Assembly (NCBI GenBank): GCA_947175295.1
Contig: CAMWMK010000002.1
Location: 11,290-75,289, forward strand
Reading direction: 5' to 3'
Length of the DNA: 64,000 bases
Source: an uncultured Porphyromonadaceae bacterium
GTDB lineage: Bacteria > Bacteroidota > Bacteroidia > Bacteroidales > Muribaculaceae
The stretch's first letter is position 1. Each line of letters begins with the position of its first letter. The translations under genes were made by a program, and so were the position numbers. The notes below the pieces were generated by a model, which worked only from the letters and a program-made list of their open reading frames with translations, made no database searches and had not been told where the DNA came from. This document shows positions 32,108 to 52,587 of this stretch, piece by piece.

Positions 32108-32518
32108 TCAGGGCTTGATTACAGACCCTTTGACAGTGAAAACCACTCTGGAGTTGCTGGCATTGCTCTTAACGCGGAGTGATTTACGGAAGAAACCGAG
32201 AGGGCGTCCACGAGTCTTGAATCTGACCTTGATTGTGCCATATTCACCCGGCGCAATAGGTTTCATAGGGAAGGAAGGCACCGTACATCCGCATTCCGTG
32301 AAGACTCTATGAATGATAAGGGGAGCGTCGCCCGTATTCTGAAACCTCATTACTCCGTTTCCTATTGAGTCAAGTGCTATCCTGCCAAGGTCGAGATATG
32401 TGGAATCAAGTTGAAGATAGGCAGTCTTAGCCGACGGCTGATCACCTTCCGGGTGATCGGCCGCCGACATCGACAACGCTATGCAGATCATCATTACAAA
32501 TATATGTATTGTTTTCAT
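32108..32518 (-). CDS. DUF1573-domain protein (small Ig-like/ASH-fold secreted protein); last gene of the pilus operon
   Basis: 136 aa with a signal peptide. The motif FQNTGDAPLIIHRVFTECGCTVPSFPMKPIAPGEYGTIKVRF is characteristic of DUF1573. Its start overlaps the stop of the upstream giant gene (TGATG). Confidence 0.8.
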   Translation of the reverse strand: MKTIHIFVMMICIALSMSAADHPEGDQPSAKTAYLQLDSTYLDLGRIALDSIGNGVMRFQNTGDAPLIIHRVFTECGCTVPSFPMKPIAPGEYGTIKVRFKTRGRPLGFFRKSLRVKSNASNSRVVFTVKGSVIKP

Positions 32519-38500: not shown

Positions 38501-40113
38501 CCGATCAGGCCTACTCTATGACTTCCTATGAATTTACAGGAACTATCGATTGTAAGATTCTCAATTCTTGCGCCGTTATTTGAGTATCCAATAAGACCGA
38601 CACCTTCATTGTTAGGAAGGTTGATCTTAAGGTTGCTTATCTTATGCCCGTTGCCGTTAAGAAAACCAGTGAACTGTCTCGTCCAATTATCACCTAAACG
38701 GGGCACGTTGTCGTATCCCGAAAAATCAAGATCTTCCAGCAGTTCAATATATGCACTGCGGGCAGTCCGATTGACTTTATTAACTACACTGATATACTCT
38801 TCTACCGTAGACACTGTATATGCATGACTGCGTTCATTAAGTACTTCACCGCCAAAAAAACCGTAATCGTCTGATATCACTGAGTATGTGGGATCGATTG
38901 CAAAGTCAAGCAAGTCGTATTTTATCTTGCTCCATGGAGCCTCATATTTCAGGCGTCCCCCTGTCCTATAGTTATACCAATGTGAGAAATTTTCTTGATA
39001 GTATGTAGTGTTCCACATCTCGTAGTAGGGATATAGAGCAACAACATCACCCGGCACTGCATATACGATGTGTTCAACGGTATGTGTCGGTTGCCTTTCC
39101 TGACCTTGGGCCAAAGGATAGGGAGAAGTTTCCGGCTTTATCATTGAAAAGTCGGGAAATTCTATATTGATTCCATTATTCGTTAGTGCAGTCTTATCTT
39201 GGTCAGTAATCTCCTGCCAACCATTGACTTTGTTCTGAGGTGCAAAAATTCCCTTCGAATTTATAAATTCAAAGTCCTTATAATCCGTTACATAATCGTC
39301 AGATGTATGAAAACGATCTACGAAGGATGACGAATATTTGCTTCCATCACCGTCTTTTTTTCTGCTGAGGACATCAAATCGCGCCATCGCCATGTCGCGG
39401 TATATCTTCAATTCTCCACGTTCCCGGTTGTTGTTGGCGGTGACTATGAACCTCATCTTCTTAAGACGCTTATATTTAGGCACTTCAGAAATAAGGTCAT
39501 CAATATTCACGTTGTCTTTACTGAGGTCGTTGATGTTCATCCAAAGTTTCTTTATGAGGACCTTTGAAGAGAATTCCTGGGTTTCGGGACCACGATACAG
39601 GAGATACACATAGAAAAGTTCATGCCAGTTTTCGGCTACATCCTCATCATCATCTCCAAAGAGACCGATCACTTTGAATGCAGTAGGATGGGCATTGGCA
39701 AACCCGGTGTCTTTATCTCGCCTCACATAAATAAGAAGACAGTCGTTGTCGCCTGCTTTGTTGTAATCAAGCCCACCATCTTTCAGGTCAACTTCAATAA
39801 AAGCCGGGTTATCCTGCCATTCGGCGGGATTAGGCACTCCGGAAAAATACATTTCATTAGCACCGGGTTTGCCTAAGTTTTCAACCGGATAGTCAGGATG
39901 CTGATGATTCGTGCCTATCTTATCTATGAGAGAGCTATCATCAAGACCTGCTTGATATGGAAACATTTCAGTTTTTGCCTGCAAGGTGGCACCTATACAG
40001 ACACTAACCAATAAAACGAGATACCGCAGAGCATACTGAGTGATGCATGTATGTCTACAGATGAATTTATTAAAATCTGACATAATGGTATGAAATGACT
40101 GAAATCTGTGCAT
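32518..40113 (-). CDS. Giant (2531 aa) secreted surface protein with a T9SS type-A C-terminal sorting domain; positional analogue of Mfa5
   Basis: A single uninterrupted ORF with an N-terminal signal-like hydrophobic segment (LRYLVLLVSVCIGATLQA). An internal GLUG/beta-helix-like segment is present (GLIGYSNNG...GLIGLHNDG...AAGILGSTYG...AAVVGWAG). The C-terminal ~70 aa (LEVKVYDTLGRLMTSAV...HGVYVVEMANGNERKSVKISN) matches the T9SS CTD pattern. Confidence 0.85.
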   Translation of the reverse strand: MHRFQSFHTIMSDFNKFICRHTCITQYALRYLVLLVSVCIGATLQAKTEMFPYQAGLDDSSLIDKIGTNHQHPDYPVENLGKPGANEMYFSGVPNPAEWQDNPAFIEVDLKDGGLDYNKAGDNDCLLIYVRRDKDTGFANAHPTAFKVIGLFGDDDEDVAENWHELFYVYLLYRGPETQEFSSKVLIKKLWMNINDLSKDNVNIDDLISEVPKYKRLKKMRFIVTANNNRERGELKIYRDMAMARFDVLSRKKDGDGSKYSSSFVDRFHTSDDYVTDYKDFEFINSKGIFAPQNKVNGWQEITDQDKTALTNNGINIEFPDFSMIKPETSPYPLAQGQERQPTHTVEHIVYAVPGDVVALYPYYEMWNTTYYQENFSHWYNYRTGGRLKYEAPWSKIKYDLLDFAIDPTYSVISDDYGFFGGEVLNERSHAYTVSTVEEYISVVNKVNRTARSAYIELLEDLDFSGYDNVPRLGDNWTRQFTGFLNGNGHKISNLKINLPNNEGVGLIGYSNNGARIENLTIDSSCKFIGSHRVGLIGLHNDGYLYVRNVRNDATCVGTRKNDQINENGDKIYSEQTAAGILGSTYGNSNRLIFENCYIGGVIGSPDDNIAQRNNAAVVGWAGTVNISDTSPFDERNTFRNIVVNCTLYGAEYDRKYFRNNQEEGKGHIIINNCYGNLGAIQGFQELPEDNTNPLDWTNGIPPKVDPEGEDNLAIRGDRQTGTFATFFCPRNPYSPAGVQHNLPFDAFDAVDEEFIIAADFSQEFSKTKHVDLDNKTITEPLISSRHIFKIRDGKVFAEDFSGSAEKNENFVRKNQRMVSARAGVPFQIRFDTPVPKRGQARSNYYYKIDDDDYRRVCAMDIRVLNALTREPVGSGEIEFKAGEAFKSQGSRFIDNVEYKLGGNGEEYFRMLQCDNPREGNYIVQLIGKDVNGEIIKVYKSEQNLVVMEYNINFMPASGASMLTEDELYNDEAEVSFKHARVETLEEKYGLPRTSINFDEYIKLNHLSDENLKNKFVSYTDGFKSGNTEGMEGSYFKWPIKWDLSNYSFGYNNRHDYNMYMLASHSSVTPFNEKANQYDGNRKEDGKGLYDRLYYTTKRLNESESATEDNTKVEQGYFYYVNAATDPGVSARLEIKDICNGSTVHVSAWMAEFSNLSETANISFNFVAVLRDSEEDGDTSNQTPLPNGFKGGDRVVLHSFITGYVPRDGVTSAGGNNANHCGEWLNIYYSFVPRVSEFSADGITPDMIDHFELELDNNCKSSNGADYAIDDIRVYIANPIVLAEQIAPICDEPKTLVRIESGFDTLIQSFNEQEAKTASQGHDLTFYYTFIDKAVYDKTYEENIDSEDPNKVAFNASVVESSYIGRVDETSSHKYGVMTFNTYYKGNKDYIPTSEPDIKASIRTVDGERMIVFNTDLTVDHLKPGQTYYAILSTTEDPGTEDSETSEKLTDDNAHSVFNIKGYCVKFCEFTVKASNVIKIDGVVVEEANQFEICENQSPVIQVNIWGQVDGDFKEIDKNAYFDWFLGTNEEFLSLNDGVETHTLAEALSVFRAKYPTAETTDGITTDDNSGENGEGNGSERLIQWMLDIINKESSPVVDETNPNYNRSYGRLQLHQSSFVVPPARILEGDKWNETIPIVAIPINTSDKDIIICSNPTEIDLTVKKKSPKLQHGLKMPYPEDMADVPLRIGLDQMRTSQTENIDIFDSKVIEIPVRYTGSTNEKADRLTLAVESALMNDDNYASKEGAIVLVQTNDPEYKDLGTVDGKYETGHLLWTGEVINLTAELGEANAEGNLFDVKFDRNFKFKEGYYYRMRFQYQESVNSSAGEVADEEEVCNGHDVFTLKIVPKYLLWTGDRNVNWNNDDNWRRVASAELYADGKYGDAGYRHHVTDGKDADATINNREKSYAPLDFTHVIIPSPVVENNNDNDSSDIIEAPYLYGVTMSNVEVNRGGKTTEYNWPEKLETDGSGYADYPENGVGEATSMIQYDMAAYDVTPVSNDDASTACRPWYMNTCKEIHFKPGATIMNQHALDYDKAWVDVELDHSRWYTLASPLKDVFAGDFYLPSDGARQLTELFQDITFDNTLTTTHRFKPAVYQRGWDKSSAKVYEVDGPGVDADGVRNVVIKANWSLVYNDVAERYDGGVGFSIKTDVSHMETNKPGDDGKVLFRFPKADTEYFYFTQDGSQNGHETTVRTQSNHRLNETNGTISASTATEGKYFLIGNPFMTHMDIQKFLKANEGKLEQKYWIVTAKGQIAGSIDDNGKFIATPVPAEEGKTYAEPTVIAPMQGFFVEAKAARTSLDLVYDESMMRRYDSNKGILTEATRGDEKPDVFRITSYCEGNPTSAAILVTDIASGNDVAAMDNRDLEIPSTVYTAKNGQALSINFCDDAEGVEIGVIADAETKTVLRFDGSETIDGLSLLDKADYSLTPIHEGMEITVDGMAAGRYFLTYGARVEEVFGGIEWSKNNDGLEVCDRASSGYLEVKVYDTLGRLMTSAVSDGERIHIALSHGVYVVEMANGNERKSVKISN

Positions 40114-40130
40114 ACAGATATTTTTTTAAT

Positions 40131-41525
40131 TTACTTACTTCTGAGGTAAAGAGTCCGTGTGTATTTTAAATTGTCGATATTGAAGGTAAATGTAATTACG
40201 ATTGGTTCGTTCACCTTGTTCTCCGCCCCCATTTCAAAGTAGCCGTTCCATCTTCGGGTAGTAGAATCATATGTGAGATTCAACCCCTTGTAAATTTCCT
40301 TATCATAATCACATTGCACATAGTATGTCTTATCTGCTCCCGGTGTGTCATCCACAGTCAATTCCTTTCCTGTGCTGTCGATGAGTCTGGCGTCTATGTC
40401 GAATGCTCCGGATGAGGAGAAGGTGGCATAGAATTCAGTACCTTTATTTTCCACCTGTACTGGATATCCACCAATCGGAGGATAATCGTAGACGTTGAGC
40501 ATCGGCCTATAGTCTGAAATGACGATAGGGAAGAGAACATAGTCGTTGCGGTAGAAGAACTTGAGATCATCATCTGCTAAGGCATAAGTAGCGATTTCTT
40601 CAGTCTGGTCACCGCGTTTGAGTGTTATGCCGATATGGAAATGATCGGTAGGATGATTACCTTCCGCTATTGATTCTTTGATGTAGAAGCGGTGGCGTTC
40701 GGAAATGTCAGTAGTTTCTTTGTCAAGGGGAACGTCACTGTTCTGTATACCTACAGTTATTGGTTTGTAATAAACACCATCTGGAAGGGTCGGAGTAACG
40801 TCAGGATATTTATTGTCAGGAATTGGCTTTTCTTCATATTTTGGCATGAGGAATACAGATCCTGCATTAATAGGTTGAAGCCCAATCTCTGTAATGGATA
40901 TGTTGTCAGTTGTCTGTTTTACGAAAGCAAACTCAACACGACTGTATAGGCGGACAACTTCAATTGCAAAAGTTTCGTTGACAGTACCCTTTGGGGTGAA
41001 TTTAAGATATCCAGTCATCGGGATTGATTCCTCTGAAGAAAGAAAGTCTTTATCGCCATTTGCAGAATATAGAGCATTATTTATATCTTCGATATTGATT
41101 TTATCGCCAATCTTTGAAAGACCGAGGCTACTTGCAAATGCTTCGCAACTGTCTGCAGTGCTGTTGGTTTTATTGAAATTTGCGAACCCAAAGGCCGTGT
41201 ATGTCTTGTACAGTTCAAGTTCTACATTTACTACATCATTCCATACTCCTGACTGTGTCCCTTGGTCTAAAGCTACTACCGTTCCGCTATCATCGACGAT
41301 TGCAACAAACCAATTTTGTATCAGTTCATTGGATGTTGCTTGATGTTCAGGGAAAATGGCAGTGGCCCGTGTTAACGGCGCAAGTGGAGCAGCGGAGAGT
41401 GTAAGGGAAACAAATTTAGGTTGTCCGTTATCTTCTTTTTCGGGAACGTCATTTATACATGACGAGACAGCCAAACCTGTAAGGATGGCTGTCGCGAAGG
41501 GATATATGATCTGTCGAATTGTCAT
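40131..41525 (-). CDS. Type V pilus accessory/tip pilin-like lipoprotein (fimbrillin superfamily)
   Basis: 464 aa with lipobox LAVSSC. A prodomain-like FVSLTLSAAPLAPLTR|A carries the Arg processing site typical of type V pilins. The gene lies in operon context. Confidence 0.6.
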   Translation of the reverse strand: MTIRQIIYPFATAILTGLAVSSCINDVPEKEDNGQPKFVSLTLSAAPLAPLTRATAIFPEHQATSNELIQNWFVAIVDDSGTVVALDQGTQSGVWNDVVNVELELYKTYTAFGFANFNKTNSTADSCEAFASSLGLSKIGDKINIEDINNALYSANGDKDFLSSEESIPMTGYLKFTPKGTVNETFAIEVVRLYSRVEFAFVKQTTDNISITEIGLQPINAGSVFLMPKYEEKPIPDNKYPDVTPTLPDGVYYKPITVGIQNSDVPLDKETTDISERHRFYIKESIAEGNHPTDHFHIGITLKRGDQTEEIATYALADDDLKFFYRNDYVLFPIVISDYRPMLNVYDYPPIGGYPVQVENKGTEFYATFSSSGAFDIDARLIDSTGKELTVDDTPGADKTYYVQCDYDKEIYKGLNLTYDSTTRRWNGYFEMGAENKVNEPIVITFTFNIDNLKYTRTLYLRSK

Positions 41526-41559
41526 ATAAGCGTATATAGAATTTTAGTGTTCTTAATCA

Positions 41560-43272
41560 TTACATTATAATTTCCGGTTGAGGTCGGAAATTCCATTTGA
41601 TTACATATATTCGTGTATTTACATTGTGTGGTTCTGTAATCTCCGGTTTCGGTTGTCCAATACCGTTGAATGATAGTTTTATTCGGTATATGTTGTTACG
41701 AACTATGCCATATTTCATAGGGAAATTCTCATCTGAATCTTCGATATTTGCATGTTTTATCCAGATGTTGTAGTAGCATATGCCACCCGGATAATATACA
41801 GTCTCATACTTTCCTTCGCCAGGAAGAGTAGCCACGTATTCGTTCAGAGCATCTTCACTGGAAAAATAGAGATTGTATTTTTCATCCACAATGTTTGTAT
41901 TATAGGCTCCTACTGTTCGGAACAGCCAGAAGTCATTGCCATCGACATATTCCTCTGATTTAGCATCGTCTCCTATATCACCGGTAGTGTATACCTTGGC
42001 AGGGTGATATTGTGCACGGAAAAGCAGACCTGTAAGGTAGTCGGAGGCATTTTCTAAAACTTGAATCTCCTCTGGATGGGTATTTTCATTCGCATATGTG
42101 ACGATGAGGGCTTTGTCTTCTGTTTTCTGGTCATAACTGTCGATAGGAATATCGATAGGTTTGCCAAAATTTGAGATTTCATATTGATTAGAGAAGAAAT
42201 AATTGTTTTGTTTGCGCAGGAATCCAGCTGAGCTTTTTCCATACCAATTAGACAAGATAGCCTCAGTGGTCTCTTCGCTTTTATCTTTGAAGCAAGGAGA
42301 TATGACGTAATTTGTCGGTTTCTGACCATCAAGAGTCTCATCTGCTGCTATTAGGACATTATCGACATTATCTCCATTTGAAAGATGTTTCAACAGATAG
42401 GAATTCTGTTGCATGAGATTTACAGGAATGATGTTTGAGATAGACAAGGTATGTTCGACATTCTTTACCTTATATCTAAGTTGGTTGTCAATATCGATCC
42501 ATCCTTTTTCCTGTTTATCTCGTGTAGATGAGTTGTTAGAAAACTGAAGGTCAATACGAGCTGCTACTCTTTCAAGTGTTATTTCGGTAGAATAGACAAT
42601 TCCGTCATTTCCAGTGGATACATTTATAAGACCTTCATTATAAATATAACTGTCAGGTTGTATCACTCCATTAAATGCAGGGGACATTACAAAACGGTCG
42701 GCGGTTGTCGTAGATTCACCTATCCAAGCTTTGCCATATTGTACATTGTCGACAATTGTCTTGGTACGGGTTTGATTGACCGCTACGGATGAGAAGATAT
42801 CTCCTGTATTGGCAACAACAATGCAACGACAAGAGTTAGGCAAACCTGCATATTCCCTGAATATTTCCAAATCCGCCTTATTCAATGGAATCTTCACATT
42901 ATAAATTCGATCATGATTATAGCTTGGATTGTCATTTTCAGTTTCAATCATAGACGAATCTACATATTTAGACCATCTTATATAATAGTTGCCGTCAAGA
43001 CCATTGTTGTTATCTCTATATAGAAATATATTTAGGTCGTAGATAGCATTCTCCTTACCTTGTCCATGCTCATAGCCATCGCCTATCTCTCCGCCAGTAG
43101 GGTTGGAACGCGTCCCTAAATTTCCTCCAGTTGTGACAGTAAGCTCTAAATAAGCCATTACTTCATCCGAAATCACTTCCGGACACGAATCATCTGCCTC
43201 ATATACACATGACGGGAGTGTGAGCAACGGCAAGATTGAAAATGAGAGTATCGCTTTTCTTAGAAAAGACAT
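41560..43272 (-). CDS. Type V pilus accessory pilin-like lipoprotein (Mfa1/fimbrillin superfamily)
   Basis: The ATG at 43272 gives MSFLRKAILSFSILPLLTLPSC, a lipoprotein signal. The sequence continues YLELTVTTGGNLGTR|S. The C-terminus NNIYRIKLSFNGIG...IYVIKWNF resembles the Mfa1-family C-terminal strand region. The longer ORF start at 43371 would overlap the upstream gene. Confidence 0.65.
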   Translation of the reverse strand: MSFLRKAILSFSILPLLTLPSCVYEADDSCPEVISDEVMAYLELTVTTGGNLGTRSNPTGGEIGDGYEHGQGKENAIYDLNIFLYRDNNNGLDGNYYIRWSKYVDSSMIETENDNPSYNHDRIYNVKIPLNKADLEIFREYAGLPNSCRCIVVANTGDIFSSVAVNQTRTKTIVDNVQYGKAWIGESTTTADRFVMSPAFNGVIQPDSYIYNEGLINVSTGNDGIVYSTEITLERVAARIDLQFSNNSSTRDKQEKGWIDIDNQLRYKVKNVEHTLSISNIIPVNLMQQNSYLLKHLSNGDNVDNVLIAADETLDGQKPTNYVISPCFKDKSEETTEAILSNWYGKSSAGFLRKQNNYFFSNQYEISNFGKPIDIPIDSYDQKTEDKALIVTYANENTHPEEIQVLENASDYLTGLLFRAQYHPAKVYTTGDIGDDAKSEEYVDGNDFWLFRTVGAYNTNIVDEKYNLYFSSEDALNEYVATLPGEGKYETVYYPGGICYYNIWIKHANIEDSDENFPMKYGIVRNNIYRIKLSFNGIGQPKPEITEPHNVNTRIYVIKWNFRPQPEIIM

Positions 43273-43298
43273 TTTACGAATTGTTTGATTGAAAAATG

Positions 43299-44549
43299 TT
43301 ATTTTATCACCACGTTCTGAATACGTTTGCTCCATGACAGAATATCTATCATGACTGTCACGTATTCCCACGTGTCACCTTTAAGGATAAAGTCGAGATG
43401 ATAGTCGTGTTCGCGGTCAAGGTATTCTTGTGGAGAATAATTGTAATACTCATATGCCGTACGTCCCTGTGCTAAGATATACGGGAGGTTGATTGTAGCT
43501 ACGTCTTCGCCTGTCTCCTTGTTTCTGATACGGAGGATAGCACATTTGTTGGGATCGGAATCATACATCACGCGATTGTACATGATATTGAAGTGTGCTG
43601 TGCGTTCCCGACTTGGATCGTTCTCATCGATATCAGAGCGTGTCGGTATCTTGGCCCCGGCATTGAGGGCTCTGGTAAGGTCGCCTGATTCGTATTCGAG
43701 TCCGTTATTACTGAAACGAGTAGTCCATCCTGCGAAGGGAGTATATCTTAGAGGATGGTGTGGCACTATGCTGTTGTCGTGAGCCAGAATGGCATTGTCG
43801 TCGTCGATAGTCACTTCATAGCGTGAATGCTGCATGTCGGCCTTGTTGTTGAGCTGTCGCAGGGTTATGTTGAGATGCTTGGTGTCCCTTATAAGGGAAA
43901 CAGTGGCATATGTGGCATGATCATCAGTGACAGTGACATATTGCTCCTCCATCGGGTATATGCTGTAAGGAGCAGAAGTACGGTGCATATCTGGAATATT
44001 GCGCGAATCCATAGGATCGTAAGACATCACTTTCAATGTATGCCAGAGGGTATCGAGAGGCAGCGAGTGATGATCTACGTTGTGGCGACCGGTCAGTTCA
44101 TCAGGCTGCTCGGAATGATCGAGGGTAATATTGAAGTCAGTAGCTTCTGTGTGTTCTGAGACACGGTTGTATTTCGCACGGCTGGTTGTCTGGGCATTAT
44201 TCCAGTCGTTCTGCAGACCTATTGCCTGAAGGCGATAGCGTCCCGGTGCGAGTTCGCCGGGAGAGAAGTGCATGGTGTAGCCGTAATTGGCAAGGGGACT
44301 GTTGCCATCTATATTTGAAACGGAGCGTTCAGCCACCTTATGGCCGTTCTCGTCATAGATATACAGCGTGACGTGACCGACGTGATCCTTAAACATGTCG
44401 GCGCGCATCGTATTGTAGTCGTAGACGTAACGCACATAAAGACCGGTAGGACAGTCATCTAAATCTTCGGTCATCATCGAGCAGGATGAGGCAACGAGAG
44501 AACTACATATAATTGCTGCGTTTGTCAATTTATGAAGAAAACGGTTCAT
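43299..44549 (-). CDS. FimB/Mfa2-family fimbrial anchor subunit lipoprotein
   Basis: The ATG at 44549 gives MNRFLHKLTNAAIICSSLVASSCS. The following DLDDCPTGLYVRYVYDYNTMRADMFKDHVGHVTLYIYDENG matches the Mfa2/FimB N-terminal pattern. No GTR prodomain site is present. Confidence 0.75.
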   Translation of the reverse strand: MNRFLHKLTNAAIICSSLVASSCSMMTEDLDDCPTGLYVRYVYDYNTMRADMFKDHVGHVTLYIYDENGHKVAERSVSNIDGNSPLANYGYTMHFSPGELAPGRYRLQAIGLQNDWNNAQTTSRAKYNRVSEHTEATDFNITLDHSEQPDELTGRHNVDHHSLPLDTLWHTLKVMSYDPMDSRNIPDMHRTSAPYSIYPMEEQYVTVTDDHATYATVSLIRDTKHLNITLRQLNNKADMQHSRYEVTIDDDNAILAHDNSIVPHHPLRYTPFAGWTTRFSNNGLEYESGDLTRALNAGAKIPTRSDIDENDPSRERTAHFNIMYNRVMYDSDPNKCAILRIRNKETGEDVATINLPYILAQGRTAYEYYNYSPQEYLDREHDYHLDFILKGDTWEYVTVMIDILSWSKRIQNVVIK

Positions 44550-44650
44550 ATTCAATTTATTTTGTAGGGAAGAATGGGTCTTTTGAAATTTAGACCATTT
44601 GTCAAAAGATAAAGAGAGATAAAATTTAAATATGTTATGTAGGTATATAA

Positions 44651-44683
44651 GGGCAGGGAACACCAAGGGACGTGTCCCTGCCC
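44651..44683 (-). terminator. Stem-loop directly after the major pilin gene (possible intra-operon attenuator)
   Basis: GGGCAGGGA (44651-44659) pairs with TCCCTGCCC (44675-44683), a 9-bp GC-rich stem 19 nt after the Mfa1-like stop. On the transcript it is followed by UUAUAUA. Confidence 0.5.
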
Positions 44684-44701
44684 TGTTGTCTATAGAACTA
44701 C

Positions 44702-46540
44702 TTATAGTTCTTCGCTTTGTGTACGCTTAGCCCAAGAGAGAATGTTGATCTTGCAGGCAATGGCTTTTTCGGGATCCACCTTATCATCAGGAGTCTTGTC
44801 AAGAACAAGGTTGCCAACTAAAGGTTCTCCATATTTTTCGATTGCTGAAATGCTTAAATGATACCAGTTGTTGCGTAATACACCGTAACGACCGAGATAA
44901 TTATTTGCGTTGTAATCGGGATAAGACTCAGCGGTTGTAGTGGTTTCTCCATTAGGTTCTTTCCACGGGGTCAGGTCATCGCCGAAGTGCTTGATACGGA
45001 CAGCATAATAGGAAACACCATCAACATATGCATTGAATGTAACCTGAGAATTGATATCCTCTATGATATTATTGACATCTATGTTTTCAGGAAATTCAAC
45101 AACGGAAGGGTTGTCTTCACCGTTAAGAAGCTGAATAGACGAAATCAGGAGCTTTCCATCCTTAACCTCGTATCCAAGATTGACCCATTTATTAGCAGCT
45201 GTTCCTTTATTGGTCTTTTCATCAAAAATACAATCGAGACCATCTATAGTAATTGTTGTAGGAGTATCGAAATAGTCAGTCCACGTTTTAACTACATCGG
45301 CATTTTCCACAACAAAGTGAGCAAGACTCATCTGAGCATCTTTGCTTGTGTATTTAGTAACACGGTCAATACCGCGTGTGAAGAAAATACCATCTTCAAA
45401 AGTTACCTTTAGAATAACTCTGGTTGTGTTAAGATAATCCTGATGCTTTACATCAAATGTATTCTCATAACAATATTGTGAAGAAGTTTCCGGTTTGAAG
45501 GTATTTTTGTCTATGTCTGCATCTTTAAGCACGACGAGGTTGCCATCATCGATGCCATTACCATTAGGATCATAGCCAAAATATAGACGGTAGAACAGGT
45601 TGGTGGCGTCGAAGGGTGAATTTCCAACGAATCGATAATTCTGAGAGGGCTTGATGGTAAGTCCTGCAAGGAAATTTGCATCTTGAGTATAAGCCATCCA
45701 CGCTGGTGCTTCAGAACCATCATAACTTCCATAAACCAAATTACGAGCAACGTAAGATGACGGCTCTGTATTGTCAATTACCCATTCTAAAGACTTTATT
45801 GTACCAATGGGCTTTCTAAGTAAATCCCTTTCTAATGTAACCTTTGCAACAGCACGTTCTACAAAGATTTCTGCTGCAGGATCTTCCTTAGCTTTATCCT
45901 TTGTTTCTGCAATTTTTTCTTTGTCAACCGGCGCAAGGAAATGGATTAAACCAGTTGGTGCTGATGCTACGCCTGATCCTGGTTCTGTTGTATAAGGCGC
46001 ATTTGTCATAAAGAAGTTGGATCCATTGGCAAAGGCCAGGTCTTTCGTTGTGGTAAGAGCCATAAACTCTTTAATGCTTCCTGTGAATGTACCACCACCA
46101 ACCAAATTTAGATTGTGATCGTCATCAATAGAGAAAAGGTTGTTGGAGTTTATTAAAGCGACAGCCCAAAGAGATTCTGTATTTTCTGTTACTTCAACAG
46201 GAAAAGTGACCAAGTGGGATGATGTTATTTGATCATCGTCAGGTTTTACAAATTGAAATTCGTTAGTCACATTGTAAGCCTTAAGGAATGTAGCGGATTC
46301 TTCTCGACCGGAGAAAAACACTATCGCGGCATTGTTTACCTGATATTCTGACTTATCTCCATCTCCAAAATTATCGTTGGCACGAGTTCCTACACTGGTA
46401 GGCATACCGATGGCAATGGATACATATCCAGAGCCTTTGCTGTCATCATTTCCGCCCAAGTCTGGGGCGATGTCTTTGTCGGAGCAGGCGGCCATCATGG
46501 TCAGTGCGGCTGCTCCGTAGAGCCATTGTTTTAGCTTCAT
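44702..46540 (-). CDS. Mfa1-family type V pilus major subunit (lipoprotein precursor)
   Basis: 612 aa with lipobox LTMMAACSD. A prodomain ends at SVGTR|AND, an Arg-protease maturation site. The C-terminal RNNWYHLSISAI...ACKINILSWAKR is typical of the Mfa1 family. Confidence 0.8.
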   Translation of the reverse strand: MKLKQWLYGAAALTMMAACSDKDIAPDLGGNDDSKGSGYVSIAIGMPTSVGTRANDNFGDGDKSEYQVNNAAIVFFSGREESATFLKAYNVTNEFQFVKPDDDQITSSHLVTFPVEVTENTESLWAVALINSNNLFSIDDDHNLNLVGGGTFTGSIKEFMALTTTKDLAFANGSNFFMTNAPYTTEPGSGVASAPTGLIHFLAPVDKEKIAETKDKAKEDPAAEIFVERAVAKVTLERDLLRKPIGTIKSLEWVIDNTEPSSYVARNLVYGSYDGSEAPAWMAYTQDANFLAGLTIKPSQNYRFVGNSPFDATNLFYRLYFGYDPNGNGIDDGNLVVLKDADIDKNTFKPETSSQYCYENTFDVKHQDYLNTTRVILKVTFEDGIFFTRGIDRVTKYTSKDAQMSLAHFVVENADVVKTWTDYFDTPTTITIDGLDCIFDEKTNKGTAANKWVNLGYEVKDGKLLISSIQLLNGEDNPSVVEFPENIDVNNIIEDINSQVTFNAYVDGVSYYAVRIKHFGDDLTPWKEPNGETTTTAESYPDYNANNYLGRYGVLRNNWYHLSISAIEKYGEPLVGNLVLDKTPDDKVDPEKAIACKINILSWAKRTQSEEL

Positions 46541-46681
46541 TGTTGTTTGTTTTAAGTTATTTGTATTTTGGTTGTTATGTTATTATAATTTTGCGTTGCT
46601 TGGAGTACCTACGGCTTCCGCCTTGGCACGGTAGGTGGGTGGCATGGGGGAGGCTGGAAGCCTCCTTTCCATGGGGTGCTC

Positions 46682-48157
46682 TTATTTAAGGAGTTCGAGG
46701 TTGCGTTCGGCGTTGGCGTTGCCGGTGGCTTTCTCAAAGTAGCGCTTCGCTGCATCGTAATCCTCCTCGGCTGTCGCAATGATGCCGAGTAGGTTGTATA
46801 CCTCGGGTGTATTCTCCGGTACCTTGTCTAATAGTTCTTTCGCACGCTCGTATTCTCCACGGTTGACGGCGGAAGTCGCGGCGTTGGTTATTGCGATCTG
46901 GTCGCGCGGATAGTATCTGAGGGCCGTCAGCATCACTTCGTTGAACTCATCGCTGTCTTCCGGATACATACGCGCTACGCGGTACATCTGGTTGAGCGAC
47001 ATTTTCTCGGGTGAAGTCTTGATTACATCCTTAAGCTGCACATCCGGCATCGGTTTTAGACGGGTATGTATGGCAAAGGTCGTGGCGCGAAGCTTCGGAA
47101 ACCATTCAGGAAGTATCTTGCTTCTATAGAGTGCTGCATATCTGGGATCTGTCTTGAGGAGCCATTCTTTGCGGTCCCACTGTTCGGGAGTGGTGGCCGG
47201 AGCATCGATGAGCTCAAGGAGATCCTTACGTTGCTGTTCGGTGAGTTCGTTGCTTTTCATTACCTGCTGGCGGAACTCCACCCAGTTTTCCGGCACGGCT
47301 GAATAGCTGGCGTTCTCCTTGGATAGGTGGTAACGGTCGGCGAGATATTCAGCGAGGGCTTTGCTTCGGCCTGTTGCAAGCTCGTCGTTGTGGGTATACG
47401 GCGACTCTGGAGAAGCGTATCCGCATATCTCAATTGCAGAGATCTCTACGTTGGGGTCGGAGAGGGCATACTGCACTGAGTCGTCGATCATCTGAATCTG
47501 CTGGCGGTTGTCGATGCGCTGGCCGTTTCGGCAGATGTAGGGGTTGACGTGTAGTTCCGTGCGGTCAACTTCAAACTGTACGCGGGCCCGTCCTTCGTGG
47601 ATCTGCACCGGGATTTCCTCCACTTCAGGGATAATCATGATGGATGTCATCTCCTTCACAGGGTTGTGGAAGATCACATAGGGGTCAGATATTGTCTCGC
47701 CTGCGCTCACGCCGCAGCCGCATTGGTCGAAAATAAATGCAACGCTTGAGCCAGGGGCACGCATCCAGTCTTCAAGTGGAATGCGTTCGGTATACCCGAC
47801 TTTCTGAGGCTGTCCGTTGTGGCGCAGAACTTCCTGACAGATTTGATGGCTGTCCATCGATTTGAAGTTGCGCAGCACACCGCGTTCATAGGATATGTGC
47901 ATGTTCCTGCCGTTGACGAGGACAGAGGGGAGTTGTTTGATTGTTGTGCTGTCTGTAGAAGTGACGACTGGAGTGATGAACACCTGCTCGTTTGACCGAA
48001 TCTTCAGGCTGTCGAGCAAGATGTCTGCGGAGACTGTGAGATAGTCTCCGTTGAAGATTATGTCTACGTTTTCCGTAGCGACCGTCTGCGCCATAGCGGT
48101 CGGAAGGCAGGCGAAACTGATGAATAGGCCCGCTGTTGACTTGATGAATGGGTTCAT
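46682..48157 (-). CDS. DUF3868-domain protein with an OmpA-like segment and C-terminal TPR repeats
   Basis: 491 aa with a signal peptide. The N-terminal DUF3868-like region is LTVSADILLDSLKIRSNEQVFITPVV...LPSVLVNGRN. The OmpA-like segment is CGYASPESPYTHNDELATGRSKALAEYL. The C-terminus is TPR-like. Confidence 0.7.
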   Translation of the reverse strand: MNPFIKSTAGLFISFACLPTAMAQTVATENVDIIFNGDYLTVSADILLDSLKIRSNEQVFITPVVTSTDSTTIKQLPSVLVNGRNMHISYERGVLRNFKSMDSHQICQEVLRHNGQPQKVGYTERIPLEDWMRAPGSSVAFIFDQCGCGVSAGETISDPYVIFHNPVKEMTSIMIIPEVEEIPVQIHEGRARVQFEVDRTELHVNPYICRNGQRIDNRQQIQMIDDSVQYALSDPNVEISAIEICGYASPESPYTHNDELATGRSKALAEYLADRYHLSKENASYSAVPENWVEFRQQVMKSNELTEQQRKDLLELIDAPATTPEQWDRKEWLLKTDPRYAALYRSKILPEWFPKLRATTFAIHTRLKPMPDVQLKDVIKTSPEKMSLNQMYRVARMYPEDSDEFNEVMLTALRYYPRDQIAITNAATSAVNRGEYERAKELLDKVPENTPEVYNLLGIIATAEEDYDAAKRYFEKATGNANAERNLELLK

Positions 48158-48173
48158 AGCGTTTTGGTCGAAG

Positions 48174-48794
48174 TTAGAAAATGTACATTATGCTTAGTCC
48201 GAGTTTTGTGATTCCGGCGTAGTTGGAGTTGCCGGAGTCAATCTTGGCCCCACATTCGTAGCAAGGATATTTGTCATACCATATATGATCGTATCCTACG
48301 CCGACTTCCGCTTCGATGTTCCAATGTCGGGATAGTATCCATTGGTAGCCGTAGGTAGCGCCGGCACCGGCATACCATCCCTGATATCTGGAGTCCTGGA
48401 CCCCTTTTCGAATGTTGTCTCCACCGAAGAATGCTCCAGGGAGAGGAATGTTGACATTGGAGGCGTTGAACTGGCCTCCCATTAGGTGCACGCCAAAGAA
48501 GTGGCCATTGAATTTGGAGCAGGTCCACCAGCGGAATTCGGGCATCACTGTCCAGTGCTTCGCCTTTCGGTCGCCGCTCTTAGAGTCGAAGGTCCATGGG
48601 TTGAGGCCGTATACGATCTGGAACGTATTTTTCGTTCCCACTCCAATTTCGATGCCAAGGTTGGGAGTGGTGGTTGCATCGTATAGGAGGTTGGTCTTGA
48701 CGGCAAACTCCTGTGCCTGGGCGGGAGCGCCGCCCAGAAGCATCAGTCCCGCGAAGAGGAGTCCGGCTCTTTTTGTCAGTTTGTTAGCTGTCAT
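48174..48794 (-). CDS. DUF3575-domain outer-membrane beta-barrel protein
   Basis: 206 aa with a signal peptide. EFAVKTNLLYDATTTPNLGIEIG...KHWTVMPEFRWW and the C-terminal aromatic residue match the DUF3575 pattern. DUF3575 followed by DUF3868 and Mfa1 is a common gene order. Confidence 0.75.
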   Translation of the reverse strand: MTANKLTKRAGLLFAGLMLLGGAPAQAQEFAVKTNLLYDATTTPNLGIEIGVGTKNTFQIVYGLNPWTFDSKSGDRKAKHWTVMPEFRWWTCSKFNGHFFGVHLMGGQFNASNVNIPLPGAFFGGDNIRKGVQDSRYQGWYAGAGATYGYQWILSRHWNIEAEVGVGYDHIWYDKYPCYECGAKIDSGNSNYAGITKLGLSIMYIF

Positions 48795-48896: not shown

Positions 48897-50114
48897 TTAA
48901 TTATTCTCTGCTTCCATTCTTCTGATGAAGGATAGGAGGGAGGGGTATTTCAGTCCGTGGCTAAGGGCAATCTCCCTGATGGTCCCGCCATTGTTTTTGT
49001 ATTGTTCGATTGCGGAGCGGTATTTTTCCCATGCCGTCTTTTTTACGAGCTTGCCGTTTTCGAGCCTTATCATACCCTGCCCGTCGGCGAGTTCGGGGAC
49101 ATGCTTTCTGAGGTATTGGCGGAATACTTCGGGATTGAGTCCGAATTCCTTCGCCACTTCCGCCACCGCCCTGGGTTTGCTTCGGAGGCTTTCGATGGCA
49201 TCGCCGTATTTTGCCTCTTTACGACCTTGACGTTTTTCCCTGCACCATTGGTTGAGATAGTATTTTAGGCCGGACAATGATACGCCGGTTTCCTTTACGA
49301 TCTCGGCTAAAGTCTTTCTGCCTTCCTGATAAAGTTCAAGTGCACGAGCATAACGGATTTCTGTGCCTTCACGCGGGCCATAGAGCTGTCCGTTTCCGGC
49401 CAGACTTCCGGAAGTACGTTTATAAAGAGGTTTTTTTGCATCTTTGCGTCGCTTCGCCTTGCGTCGTATCGCATCGTGGTGATAGAAGCGCATGTGCTGG
49501 CCGAAACCACTGGGCGAGATACCGAACCGTTGGGCCACTTCCTCTATCGTGAGGTCGCTGTCTTTATACAGATCGACAGCCTGTGAGTACGCAGTCTGGC
49601 TTGTCTGGCGGGCTCCGCGTTTCTGACGGTCGGCAAGTCCGAGTCTGTTTCGGGTTGCTTCGCGTGTCGGGATGACTGAGGGATAGTGGACACGCAGCTG
49701 GGCTGCGAGTCCGGTGCCTGAAAGTCCGAACATGCGGGCTATCTGAGATATATTGAATTCTATATATGCTATGTCGTCGCAGGCCGCTATCGCGTCTTTG
49801 TATTTCCGGTGGGTAGCGTAAGACTGCCCTTTAGGCGATTTGATTGCGATACGCTCTTTCCCTTCAGGTATCGTGATGCCGTATCTCTTATACAGGAGAT
49901 CGCGATGATGACGACTAAGGTATGAGCTGAGAGCTATGGGTGTGACGCCGGTCTGTTCAGCTATCTCGCGAATGGATAGCTCTGAGTTGGTATAAAGGTC
50001 TACAGCAGCTTCGTATTTTCGTGCAATATCGAAGCTTCCGGCAGACGATTTCGTTCCCAACTGTTCCGGGAGCGGATTTGGCCTGACGACTGCGGTAGTT
50101 CCCATTATGCTCAT
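48897..50114 (-). CDS. Six-repeat helix-turn-helix protein; first gene of the pilus operon and a putative regulator
   Basis: Six ~55-65-aa repeats follow the pattern Y..A(I/V)..Y......(I/L).E(I/V)A...G(I/V/L)s...(L/F)..(Y/H)(L/M), for example YEAAVDLYTNSELSIREIAEQTGVTPIALSSYL and YSQAVDLYKDSDLTIEEVAQRFGISPSGFGQHM. The ORF-track start at 50153 is a TTG, and the first ATG is at 50114. Confidence 0.65.
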   Translation of the reverse strand: MSIMGTTAVVRPNPLPEQLGTKSSAGSFDIARKYEAAVDLYTNSELSIREIAEQTGVTPIALSSYLSRHHRDLLYKRYGITIPEGKERIAIKSPKGQSYATHRKYKDAIAACDDIAYIEFNISQIARMFGLSGTGLAAQLRVHYPSVIPTREATRNRLGLADRQKRGARQTSQTAYSQAVDLYKDSDLTIEEVAQRFGISPSGFGQHMRFYHHDAIRRKAKRRKDAKKPLYKRTSGSLAGNGQLYGPREGTEIRYARALELYQEGRKTLAEIVKETGVSLSGLKYYLNQWCREKRQGRKEAKYGDAIESLRSKPRAVAEVAKEFGLNPEVFRQYLRKHVPELADGQGMIRLENGKLVKKTAWEKYRSAIEQYKNNGGTIREIALSHGLKYPSLLSFIRRMEAENN

Positions 50115-50168
50115 AGCGATACTTGTATCTTCAATTAATAGTTTGATATTCAATTACTAAGTGCCTGA

Positions 50169-50198
50169 TTTTAATTATCTCTTATGAAGAGATAATTA
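50169..50198. repeat. Left inverted repeat of the candidate inverton
   Basis: The sequence is TTTTAATTATCTCTTATGAAGAGATAATTA. Its exact reverse complement occurs at 50471-50500. Confidence 0.9.
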
Positions 50199-50470
50199 GA
50201 TTTTATATCTGCCTGAATATCAATTAACTATTTTAGCAAAATTTTCGATTTGCTAAACAAATGCTAATTTACCCCATTTAGGGTGTTTTGTCTAAATTTT
50301 TGGTTTATAATAATTTGCAGGTTGTTTTGAGGCTAAAAATCGGTGATTAGCAAATTTATAAAAGCGAACTCTGCGATTTGATGTCAAATATGCGAGATAA
50401 TAAAAAAGAAAAAATTTTTTGTCGAAAAATTTGCAATATTTCAGTACTTTTATTAAATTTGCACACGATT
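50199..50470. promoter_or_regulatory. Candidate invertible promoter segment (272 bp) between perfect 30-bp inverted repeats
   Basis: The segment is AT-rich, bounded by 30/30 inverted repeats, and contains a consensus promoter at its right end. Confidence 0.6.
50430..50461 (+). promoter_or_regulatory. Consensus Bacteroidetes sigma-A promoter (-33 TTTG / -7 TAAATTTG) inside the invertible segment, currently facing away from the pilus operon
   Basis: TTTG lies at 50430-50433 and TAAATTTG at 50454-50461, separated by a 20-nt spacer. This matches the TTTG/TAnnTTTG consensus with the canonical spacing. Confidence 0.6.
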
Positions 50471-50500
50471 TAATTATCTCTTCATAAGAGATAATTAAAA
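50471..50500. repeat. Right inverted repeat of the candidate inverton
   Basis: TAATTATCTCTTCATAAGAGATAATTAAAA is the exact reverse complement of 50169-50198. Confidence 0.9.
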
Positions 50501-50662
50501 AATCCGGGTGGGAAATCATTGATTTTCAGCGGTCACAAATTTTTTTTCGCTAAACAATTCTACAGTATCCTCCTTTGGGGATGATGCTTTTTTATGTACT
50601 TATGGATATTCGGATAGACTTAGCTATTTTCTGAATGTCACTACATATATCTATATGATATG

Positions 50663-50693
50663 CGAAAGGCACGCCAAAGAGGCGTGCCTTTCG
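50663..50693. terminator. Hairpin terminator downstream of the T9SS LRR protein gene
   Basis: CGAAAGGCACGCC (50663-50675) pairs with GGCGTGCCTTTCG (50681-50693), giving a 13-bp stem and a 5-nt loop. Confidence 0.65.
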
Positions 50694-50814
50694 TGATTGT
50701 TAGGATGGAATGTCGGGGTCACTTAATGAGGGTCATGGGCTTTACATTCGATTTGATGATGTATAGACCTTTTGGCTCGGTATTGGGGAAGTCTTTGCTG
50801 ATACCGGACTTGCC

Positions 50815-52587
50815 TCAGTGTTTGATGTGTTTTTTGGTTGTGCCGTCGGAATTACGTATGATTGAGATACCCTTATAGGCATCGTTGACAACTCTTCCGT
50901 TGAGGTCATATCTGATGGCTGGAGACGTAAGGTTGCCGTCGATGGTTTCCACTGCAGCTCCAATTCTGTTCATGAATTTCTTCCAGTAAGCCTTGCTGCC
51001 GTATGCGTCTAATGATTCGTCAGGTACTATAAGGGTGGTGTTCTCAAACTGCCAGTCGGTGAAAGTCTCGCTGAAGACGGTAGGGGGAGTGATGGCACGG
51101 CATTCGAGCGTCTCGAGTTCATCGCCGGCGAATGCGTTGGGTTTGATTTTTGACATACCGGAGCCAAGAGTCACTGTCTTAAGGCTGTTACAGTCTGCGA
51201 ATGCTAAGTCTTCAATTACGGAAGTCGCGTCGGGAACGACTATTGATTCTATTGCTGTTCCACTGAAGCTGTATGAACCAATGGACTCCACATTGTTTCC
51301 GATTGTTGCGTTGGAAAGGTTTCCGCAGAACTGGAATGAAGCATTACCGATTGTCTTTACGGATTCCGGAATCTGAATGTCGGTAAGTTGTGTACATCCG
51401 AAGCACATATTTTCCGGTATAACTGTTAAAGCTGAGCTTAAATGCAGGGTTTTCAACTCTGTCATTTTATAGAAAGCTCCGCTGCCTACTTCCACAACAC
51501 TTTCCGGAAGAATGAGTTCCTCCATTGCTCCATTGCGTTGAAAAGCTTCGGATCCAATGGTTTTCAGACAGTCAGGGAAAGGAAAATGTATAAGTTTTCC
51601 CCATGCGCTATCATTCCAATTGAGATTAGAAAAAGCAGAAGCGCCAATTGACTCAAGCCCTTCACATCCTGTGACTTCATATAGAGCGTCATTTAGATAG
51701 AATGAGTAATCACCTATTGTTTTTACAGAAGCAGGAATATGGATGCTTTTGAGATTTACGCAAGATTCAAACGCGCGATTTCCTATATCAGTGACTTCTT
51801 GTCCAATGTAAGCTGATTCCATAGCTGCACAGTTAAGGAATACACCCTCATTGATATTGGTGATTGATTCTGGTAGATTTACTTCCAGAAGGTTATGGCA
51901 ACCACTGAAGCAATAATCGCTGATGTTTGTCAGATCGTCGTTGAAGTTTACAGTTTGAAGAAGGTAACATTCACCAAAAGCCGAATGACCGAGGTCTTTG
52001 ATACCGTTAGGCAAAGTTAGTTCGGTTAGATTTTGACAATTGAAGAAGCAACCATCTGGAATGGCGGTCAAGTTGTTGCTTAAGTGGATACTCTCAATCC
52101 AATGATCTCCAGAAAAAGCACTGTTACCCAAGGTGGTGACGGAATCGGGCATGTCAATGGAATGTAATGCCGTACAGTTCGAGAAGGAGTACCAACCAAT
52201 AGTAGTGAGACCATCATTAAAAACTACAGCTTCAAGACCATAGTCATTAAGAAAGGCACTTTCTCCTACAGATGTGATGTTCTGACCGAAAATCACCTTA
52301 GTCATGTTGGGATGATAGGCAAGGCCTTCCCATCCAATCTCTGTTATTTTCATCTCATATGCTCTCGGTTCTGTGTCTCCTTCCAAGAGATATACATGTT
52401 TGACAGTGTCTGGGATCGTAATCTCCCCAGACAGTTCTTCTGTAGCGCCTATAAGTCTACACTGGAAGTTTTCGTATGAGATTACCTCATACCTGAATGA
52501 GCCGACATCGAAAGTGTCAGCTGCCATAGGAATACTGGCGGCCAATAACGATGCGACTACTGTTAGTCCTTTAGCAAGATGATGCAT
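50815..52587 (-). CDS. BspA-type leucine-rich repeat surface protein with a T9SS C-terminal sorting domain
   Basis: 590 aa with a signal peptide. It has about 18 LRR units (for example IGNRAFESCVNLKSIHIPASVKTIGDYSF). The C-terminus IRYDLNGRVVNDAYKGISIIRNSDGTTKKHIKH fits the T9SS CTD pattern. Confidence 0.8.
   Translation of the reverse strand: MHHLAKGLTVVASLLAASIPMAADTFDVGSFRYEVISYENFQCRLIGATEELSGEITIPDTVKHVYLLEGDTEPRAYEMKITEIGWEGLAYHPNMTKVIFGQNITSVGESAFLNDYGLEAVVFNDGLTTIGWYSFSNCTALHSIDMPDSVTTLGNSAFSGDHWIESIHLSNNLTAIPDGCFFNCQNLTELTLPNGIKDLGHSAFGECYLLQTVNFNDDLTNISDYCFSGCHNLLEVNLPESITNINEGVFLNCAAMESAYIGQEVTDIGNRAFESCVNLKSIHIPASVKTIGDYSFYLNDALYEVTGCEGLESIGASAFSNLNWNDSAWGKLIHFPFPDCLKTIGSEAFQRNGAMEELILPESVVEVGSGAFYKMTELKTLHLSSALTVIPENMCFGCTQLTDIQIPESVKTIGNASFQFCGNLSNATIGNNVESIGSYSFSGTAIESIVVPDATSVIEDLAFADCNSLKTVTLGSGMSKIKPNAFAGDELETLECRAITPPTVFSETFTDWQFENTTLIVPDESLDAYGSKAYWKKFMNRIGAAVETIDGNLTSPAIRYDLNGRVVNDAYKGISIIRNSDGTTKKHIKH

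Follow-up and report, generated by a model that had tools for sequence, protein, structure and literature searches.

The 64,000-nt stretch of DNA from an uncultured Porphyromonadaceae bacterium that was analyzed here (contig CAMWMK010000002.1, positions 11,290 to 75,289; hereafter the window) contains, at positions 50169-50500, a 332-bp element that is probably (with a probability of about 0.85) an invertible promoter, or inverton. This element is predicted to confer phase-variable ON/OFF expression on a gene encoding a protein with multiple helix-turn-helix (HTH) modules and on the type V pilus operon that follows this gene. In the mechanism that we favor, two identical, inverted recombination sites, each with a 3-nt asymmetric core, would flank a promoter cassette. 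In the present state, the promoter would read through the gene-distal site into terminator hairpins, leaving the operon OFF. Inversion would be brought about by a site-specific recombinase from another part of the genome, which would bring the two sites together and carry out strand exchange at their matching cores; the segment would then flip, and the promoter would read through the gene-proximal site into an 87-nt leader and the operon, which would represent the ON state.

A repeat search of the window found the inverted arms of this element at 50169-50201 and 50468-50500; they are 33 nt long and 97% complementary, with 30 nt that match perfectly, and are located 266 nt apart. This pair is the only long spaced inverted repeat (IR) of such quality within the window. 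Each site is itself palindromic, with two 12- to 14-nt arms around 3 bases, which are ATG in the left site and CAT in the right site. In the gene-proximal recombination site (IR-L, 50169-50201), the half-sites at 50172-50183 (TAATTATCTCTT) and 50187-50198 (AAGAGATAATTA) surround the ATG core at 50184-50186, giving TAATTATCTCTT-ATG-AAGAGATAATTA. The gene-distal recombination site (IR-R, 50468-50500) has the same arms, with half-sites at 50471-50482 and 50486-50497, around a CAT core at 50483-50485 that is the reverse complement of the IR-L core. The 12-nt half-site TAATTATCTCTT occurs exactly four times in the 64 kb, every time within the switch at 50169-50500; approximately 0.28 matches would be expected by chance with one mismatch allowed, and four matches were reached in none of 100 shuffles. 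Between the sites lies the AT-rich, putatively invertible interior (50202-50467, 266 nt), which MAFFT and blastn showed to be homologous from end to end with the cassettes of three related loci (L003, L108 and L109; collected loci are given by L numbers) and partially with those of two others (L057 and L060).

The interior carries a Bacteroidetes-type promoter on the plus strand (50430-50461), in which a -33 element, TTTG (50430-50433), and a -7 element, TAAATTTG (50454-50461), are separated by a 20-nt spacer; both elements match the -33/-7 consensus of Bacteroidetes promoters. The promoter ends 6-9 nt from the right site, depending on whether the start of this site is counted at 50468 or at 50471. 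In the sequenced orientation, the predicted promoter reads outward through IR-R and away from the operon, which corresponds to the OFF state. The transcript made in this state would be stopped by a terminator-like hairpin followed by a T-run (50566-50593, plus strand), and a 13-bp GC-rich hairpin (50663-50693), which is likely the terminator of a convergent leucine-rich repeat (LRR) gene, would represent a second block to read-through. In silico inversion of 50184-50485 places the -7 box at 50215-50208 on the minus strand and the start site near 50201. The leader of the flipped state would thus extend for approximately 87 nt to the ATG at 50114, and its 5' end would be formed by the proximal palindrome. 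The element shows three of the features by which invertons are recognized: an IR pair flanking a short (about 100-750 bp) intergenic segment, a predicted outward-reading promoter, and identical cores in inverted orientation. The repeats around an AT-rich segment, their 12-3-12 build with cores of opposite polarity, the promoter and its OFF direction, the two hairpins and the flipped geometry had all been described in an original prediction made from the letters of the window, and each was recovered here with the same coordinates and sequence.

To define the family of sites to which this pair belongs, many Bacteroidales loci were added to the collection by scanning for TTATCTCTTNNNAAGAGATAA in one genome per species and by a metagenome scan, and all collected loci were then subjected to an unbiased search for pairs of CTCTTnnnAAGAG located 100-600 nt apart. 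This search found 22 distinct pairs, which share a 13-nt half-site, nTTAATTATCTCTT, around a 3-nt core, and which come from Muribaculaceae, Paraprevotella, Prevotella, Bacteroides and metagenome-assembled genomes (MAGs) labeled as Porphyromonadaceae. In 21 of the 22 pairs, the core of one site is the exact reverse complement of its partner's core, a match that would have a chance of 1/64 per pair if the cores were independent, and 13 reverse-complement core classes were found across loci. Cores that are locus-specific, yet matched between partners, are predicted for a strand-exchange (overlap) region and not for the spacer of an operator; a role of the 3-nt core as the putative determinant of polarity is thus supported. 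Moreover, 21 of the 22 pairs have an outward-reading TAnnTTTG -7 box next to one site, at a distance of 15-17 nt from its CTCTT block (27 nt in L078).

The cargo found behind these switches is typical of phase-variable loci. It comprises pilus operons (L092 and L109) and genes for NusG/UpxY-like antiterminators (L018, L056, L080 and L101), glycosyltransferases (L085), a BACON-domain protein (L076) and a Type ISP restriction enzyme (L125). A homologue that is 81% identical to the multi-HTH gene of the window heads a different operon, which includes a UDP-glucose dehydrogenase gene (L003-L007), and upstream of it are two TTAATTATCTCTT-NNN-AAGAGAT sites approximately 300 bp apart with the cores CCG and CGG. 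In P. merdae, a multi-HTH homologue heads the same kind of pilus operon as in the window, and two tyrosine recombinase genes and a related IR pair are found immediately upstream.

Cassettes of this family were found in both orientations. A MAFFT alignment by promoter direction showed homology among the cassettes of the window and of L003, L060, L108 and L109. The promoter faces the multi-HTH gene in L108 and L060, whereas in the window, L003-L007, L109-L111 and L057 it is directed away from this gene. When L003 and L108 were compared by blastn, the proximal flank and the gene were collinear (87.5% over 1399 nt), as was the distal flank, while the segment from site to site aligned only in reverse (72.8% over 342 nt, E = 3e-43). 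In these two loci, the degenerate outer arm of the proximal site remains with the flank, as is predicted for site-specific inversion. Among loci with NusG/UpxY-like targets, two are in the ON state (L080 from Duncaniella muris and L101) and two are in the OFF state (L018 and L056). In one Sangeribacter MAG, two contigs (L044 and L048) end exactly at the inner edges of both sites, and the corresponding region is contiguous in L092; this pattern of breaks is expected if both orientations coexist in the sample. In L092, the switch (3197-3470) is located between two divergent, paralogous DUF3575 pilus operons that are 77% identical, and one promoter would therefore toggle between two pili.

Four strains of the window's locus, which differ by 4-5% in the flanks and overall, provided further information on the switch. 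Both recombination sites, including all of IR-L, as well as the promoter-side half of the interior are invariant (100%) among these strains, and single-nucleotide polymorphisms (SNPs) are confined to the flanks and the remaining interior. A Logan contig (L002) that ends exactly at the inner edge of IR-L was rejected as evidence for inversion, since a perfect 30-nt repeat is by itself sufficient to break a k=31 graph.

A number of observations weigh against the inverton reading or against parts of it. The locus of the window is OFF in all four assemblies in which it was found (the source contig L116, as well as L115, L117 and L118 from other samples), and a pattern specific for the ON junction had 0 matches in the metagenome collection, where the species is so rare that this result is uninformative. 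The cores of L003 and L108 differ, and these are diverged loci and not two states of one strain. A flip at one and the same locus was not found among ten P. merdae contigs, between L098 and L107, or among the four assemblies of the window's locus, each of these sets showing one orientation. In one pair (L101, 5076-5290), the cores AGT and ACG show a one-base mismatch; the coverage of this contig is approximately 3x, and the mismatch could represent an error or a decaying switch. In addition, no tyrosine or serine recombinase was found in the 64-kb window, either by Pfam searches of 30 open reading frames (ORFs) or by six-frame tblastn, for which the queries were the L050 recombinase, two tyrosine recombinases from P. 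merdae, and Hin and Gin. A trans-acting enzyme would therefore be needed, as the original prediction had already proposed, and the assignment of this enzyme to the tyrosine type rests on gene adjacency in other taxa. As all four assemblies are OFF, we infer flipping of the window's copy from its family membership and from the purifying selection on its sites and promoter.

The recombinase that would act on the window's switch is most likely of the Bacteroidales tyrosine type with Arm-DNA-bind_5, SAM_5 and Phage_integrase domains, as judged from the neighborhoods of related sites. Most members of the family have no neighboring recombinase, and action in trans therefore appears to be the rule for this site family. 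Every recombinase that does adjoin family sites is of the tyrosine type (two in P. merdae and one each in L050, L102 and L125). In Prevotella L050 (2600-4200), a 403-aa protein with the three domains named above is followed by a site pair. The recombinase in L102 (1-1500) is 50% identical to that of L050 and is located approximately 200 bp from a site whose arms are equal to those of the window, and L125 encodes a 73%-identical relative. The L125 contig (1-7212) carries, in this order, genes for MobC, a relaxase and the recombinase, a site pair with the cores GAT and ATC, and the restriction-enzyme cargo; this mobilizable element also contains DUF3408, and its cargo is the Type ISP enzyme mentioned above. 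The 403-aa tyrosine recombinase family is very large and 72-95% conserved, and in L050, L102 and L125 the recombinase gene is invariably located upstream of a CTCTT-NNN-AAGAG promoter inverton and of variable cargo.

The sites had originally been taken to resemble hix/gix-type sites, and a trans-acting serine invertase (Mpi/Hin-like) that flips the switch through hix-like 12-3-12 sites is an unlikely alternative in light of these findings. The short symmetric half-sites around a very small core would suit such an enzyme, and so would the lack of a local recombinase in the window and next to most family members; global serine invertases are also known from Bacteroides (Mpi; PMC10403206). Neither the window nor any of approximately 125 related loci yielded a serine recombinase, although the Hin/Gin probe used for this tblastn search is weak, and the adjacent recombinases are all of the tyrosine type. 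In B. fragilis, Mpi is the serine invertase of the capsular polysaccharide promoters, and its IR consensus, ARACGTWCGT, was not found in the window. Furthermore, all three central bases covary between partner sites, which have an odd, 3-nt center, instead of the 2-bp dinucleotide of a serine-type crossover. This covariation would better fit a 7-bp TT-NNN-AA overlap between 11-bp arms.

Even if the switch is an inverton by descent, it could now be a fossil, locked in a genome without the cognate recombinase and with the pilus operon permanently OFF. The OFF state of all four assemblies and the lack of a recombinase in the window are compatible with such a locked switch, and the location of the 403-aa recombinase gene on a mobilizable element in L125 means that an enzyme of this kind could be lost. 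On the other hand, among strains that show SNPs in the flanks and in the rest of the interior, there is no difference in any of the four half-sites, in either core or in the promoter, which argues for ongoing selection, and the reading frames of the operon are intact. Taking these observations together, we consider a locked switch to be quite unlikely.

The main alternative named in the original prediction was that the two palindromes are operators for a dimeric protein, e.g., the multi-HTH protein, which would loop the 300-bp region around a fixed promoter without any inversion. Each site is indeed a near-perfect palindrome, the adjacent gene encodes six HTH modules, and the sites co-occur with multi-HTH homologues at several loci. 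Operators would, however, have no reason to carry spacers that are reverse-complementary between partners in 21 of 22 loci and that represent 13 different cores. The sites are also found at NusG/UpxY-like, BACON, glycosyltransferase and restriction-enzyme loci that lack the multi-HTH gene. In most loci, the only consensus promoter is directed away from the gene, and L003 and L108 contain homologous interiors of opposite orientation between flanks that are collinear. Paired operators are therefore very improbable as an explanation of the element, but binding of a regulator to the sites may be an additional function. It is extremely improbable that the element is a miniature inverted-repeat transposable element with 30-bp terminal IRs that was inserted upstream of the operon by chance, as the terminal IRs around a short AT-rich non-coding segment might suggest, since the flanks (...GCCTGA and AATCCG...) show no target-site duplication, no further copy is present in the 64-kb window, family members are always found at operon heads with the promoter at a fixed distance, and inversion of the interior leaves the outer half-sites in place beside the flanks.

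The gene that would be switched first if the element is an inverton (48897-50114, minus strand) encodes a 405-aa protein with six tandem HTH modules. While this gene had been described as the first gene of the pilus operon, its product is a putative regulator and not a pilin. Homologues of the 405-aa protein come chiefly from Muribaculaceae, and PF24001 (DUF7317) is among the precomputed Pfam entries for these homologues; a PDB sequence search with the protein returned nothing meaningful, and no mention of DUF7317 was found in the searched literature. The family consists of 400- to 470-aa proteins with six tandem HTH modules, which were found in the window, L003, L018, L057, L060, L108, L109 and the P. 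merdae locus L008. Pilus and polysaccharide-type operons behind invertons repeatedly begin with a gene of this family. In L018, the multi-HTH gene is located directly 3' of a NusG/UpxY-like gene, which is the position of UpxZ. The multi-HTH protein is possibly a switch-coupled trans-regulator. It was also considered as the recombinase itself and rejected in this role, as it is without a catalytic domain and the sites are present at many loci that lack the gene.

One could further speculate that the CTCTT-NNN-AAGAG invertons form one regulon of the often mobile 403-aa recombinase (L050, L102 and L125) and that the six-HTH protein feeds back on its own switch or on sister loci by binding the half-sites or a TTTGCTAAAC motif found in the cassette; as a joint proposal, this is doubtful. 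If the first part were true, orphan chromosomal switches would be flipped in trans by a recombinase encoded on mobile elements. If the second part were true, a six-HTH protein made only in the ON state would create a hierarchy analogous to that of UpxY and UpxZ, for pili.

The TTTGCTAAAC motif (50249-50258, plus strand) has a fixed offset of +70 from the non-promoter site, and a related copy, TTCGCTAAA, is located outside IR-R (50546-50554). Across the family, 9 cassettes have a TTTGCTAAA(C) motif in their interior at +69 to +71 nt, counted from the non-promoter site, and in 5 cassettes such a motif is located on the outside, at +21 to +23 nt from the promoter-side site; the loci with such fixed-offset motifs are the window, L003, L108, L109, L018, L027, L047, L098, L106, L050 and L125. 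Recombinases with an Arm-DNA-binding domain may use the motif as an accessory or arm-type site. Another variation concerns the arms themselves, as a second half-site type, CATCAnAATCTCTT, replaces TTAATTATCTCTT at one arm in L021, L050, L052, L056, L097 and L101, which hints at two binding specificities or at an asymmetric assembly of the site.

The rest of the type V pilus operon (32108-48794, minus strand) follows the multi-HTH gene. Its genes, all on the minus strand, encode a DUF3575 protein (48174-48794), a DUF3868/TPR protein (46682-48157), a fimbrillin with a Fimbrillin_C domain (44702-46540), an Mfa2-like anchor (43299-44666), a second fimbrillin with a Fimbrillin_C domain (41560-43371), a 464-aa protein with no function assigned (40131-41525) and, at the end of the operon, a 2531-aa protein (32518-40113), which is followed by a DUF1573 gene (32108-32518). 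The DUF3575, DUF3868, Fimbrillin_C and Mfa2 genes downstream of the switch identify the operon, which is approximately 18 kb long, as one of the type V (Mfa1/FimA) class. The 2531-aa protein has a weak match to a type IX secretion system C-terminal sorting domain and is possibly a giant adhesin that is co-expressed with the pilus.

In E. coli, fimS is an invertible element of approximately 300 bp that contains the promoter of a fimbrial operon and is flipped by the tyrosine recombinases FimB and FimE. The element described here is likewise a promoter-bearing element of approximately 300 bp ahead of a fimbrial operon; unlike it, fimS has 9-bp IRs, adjacent recombinase genes, a chaperone-usher pilus and an unrelated type of promoter. 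The Mpi regulon resembles the present family in that many promoter invertons per genome are served by one trans-acting recombinase that is not located beside most of them, but Mpi is a serine enzyme with another IR consensus, whereas the evidence from the window's family points to tyrosine recombinases.

The closest experimentally defined parallel is offered by type V pili themselves, as experiments in Phocaeicola vulgatus and B. fragilis have established that Mfa1 pili are controlled by invertible promoters and tyrosine recombinases (PMC12940148). For the Tsr recombinases involved, action at a distance is possible, as in the case of BF2766 in B. fragilis, which acts on a remote locus, and wild-type populations are mostly OFF (PMC12940148). 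As in the Tsr-dependent Mfa1/exopolysaccharide invertons (BF2766 and BVU2684; PMC12940148), the invertible promoter of the window would be located directly upstream of a type V pilus operon and its orientation would set the ON or OFF state. By comparison, the window contains no match to the IR motif of the Tsr invertons, TACTTNNNANGTAANNGAA (PMC12940148), even when one mismatch is allowed, and the sites of the window differ in being palindromic (13-3-13), in having no adjacent tsr gene and in having a multi-HTH gene as the first gene. Bacteroidales integrative and conjugative elements (ICEs) have been reported to carry modules of an invertase, an invertible promoter and variable cargo, including phase-variable resistance genes (bioRxiv 10.1101/2021.04.26.441444). 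L050, L102 and L125, each with a tyrosine recombinase, a CTCTT-NNN-AAGAG pair with its promoter, and variable cargo, resemble these ICE modules in their arrangement, while the window's copy is located on the chromosome, with no invertase gene beside it, and would control a pilus operon. The motif string of the family was not found in the searched literature or in the supplements of PMC11892184, a search that did not include a comparison with published PhaseFinder IR logos.

The switch is thus a good but ordinary example of a known mechanism, within a widespread family of invertible promoters, and does not overturn the current understanding of these systems. Phase-variable pili and capsules shape colonization, adhesion, and phage and immune evasion by gut Bacteroidales, and the present locus represents a clean, well-delimited switch in the little-studied Muribaculaceae. 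The family is defined by nTTAATTATCTCTT half-sites, by a 3-nt core that is free to vary but matches between partners, and by the constant distance of the promoter, and this definition would allow for prediction of invertons from sequence without reads. It also raises the questions of which tyrosine recombinase serves the orphan copies and of what role the six-HTH first gene plays.

With regard to other features near the switch, a 75-aa ORF (50292-50519) and a 72-aa ORF of L003, whose strands are opposite with respect to the gene and which both run across the repeats, were judged to be spurious, and a search of 49900-50900 against Rfam matched no RNA family. The neighbor on the other side of the switch, and outside of it, is the convergent BspA-type LRR gene (50815-52587, minus strand). 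Reciprocal control of this gene and the pilus operon through antisense read-through had been suggested originally, but two terminator-like hairpins intervene and a C10 peptidase gene is located between the switch and the LRR gene in two other strains of this species (L117 and L118); antisense coupling to the LRR gene as a designed feature is therefore unlikely. The pilus and LRR genes are part of an island (32-53 kb) with a GC content of 38-47%, as compared to 52-57% in its flanks, which contain Nuo/ATP-synthase genes and riboflavin-biosynthesis (RibBA) genes. This island is variable among strains, as the LRR gene differs and the C10 peptidase gene lies beside the switch in L117 (14200-16260) and L118 (7774-9834), and several assemblies break just past nuoN.

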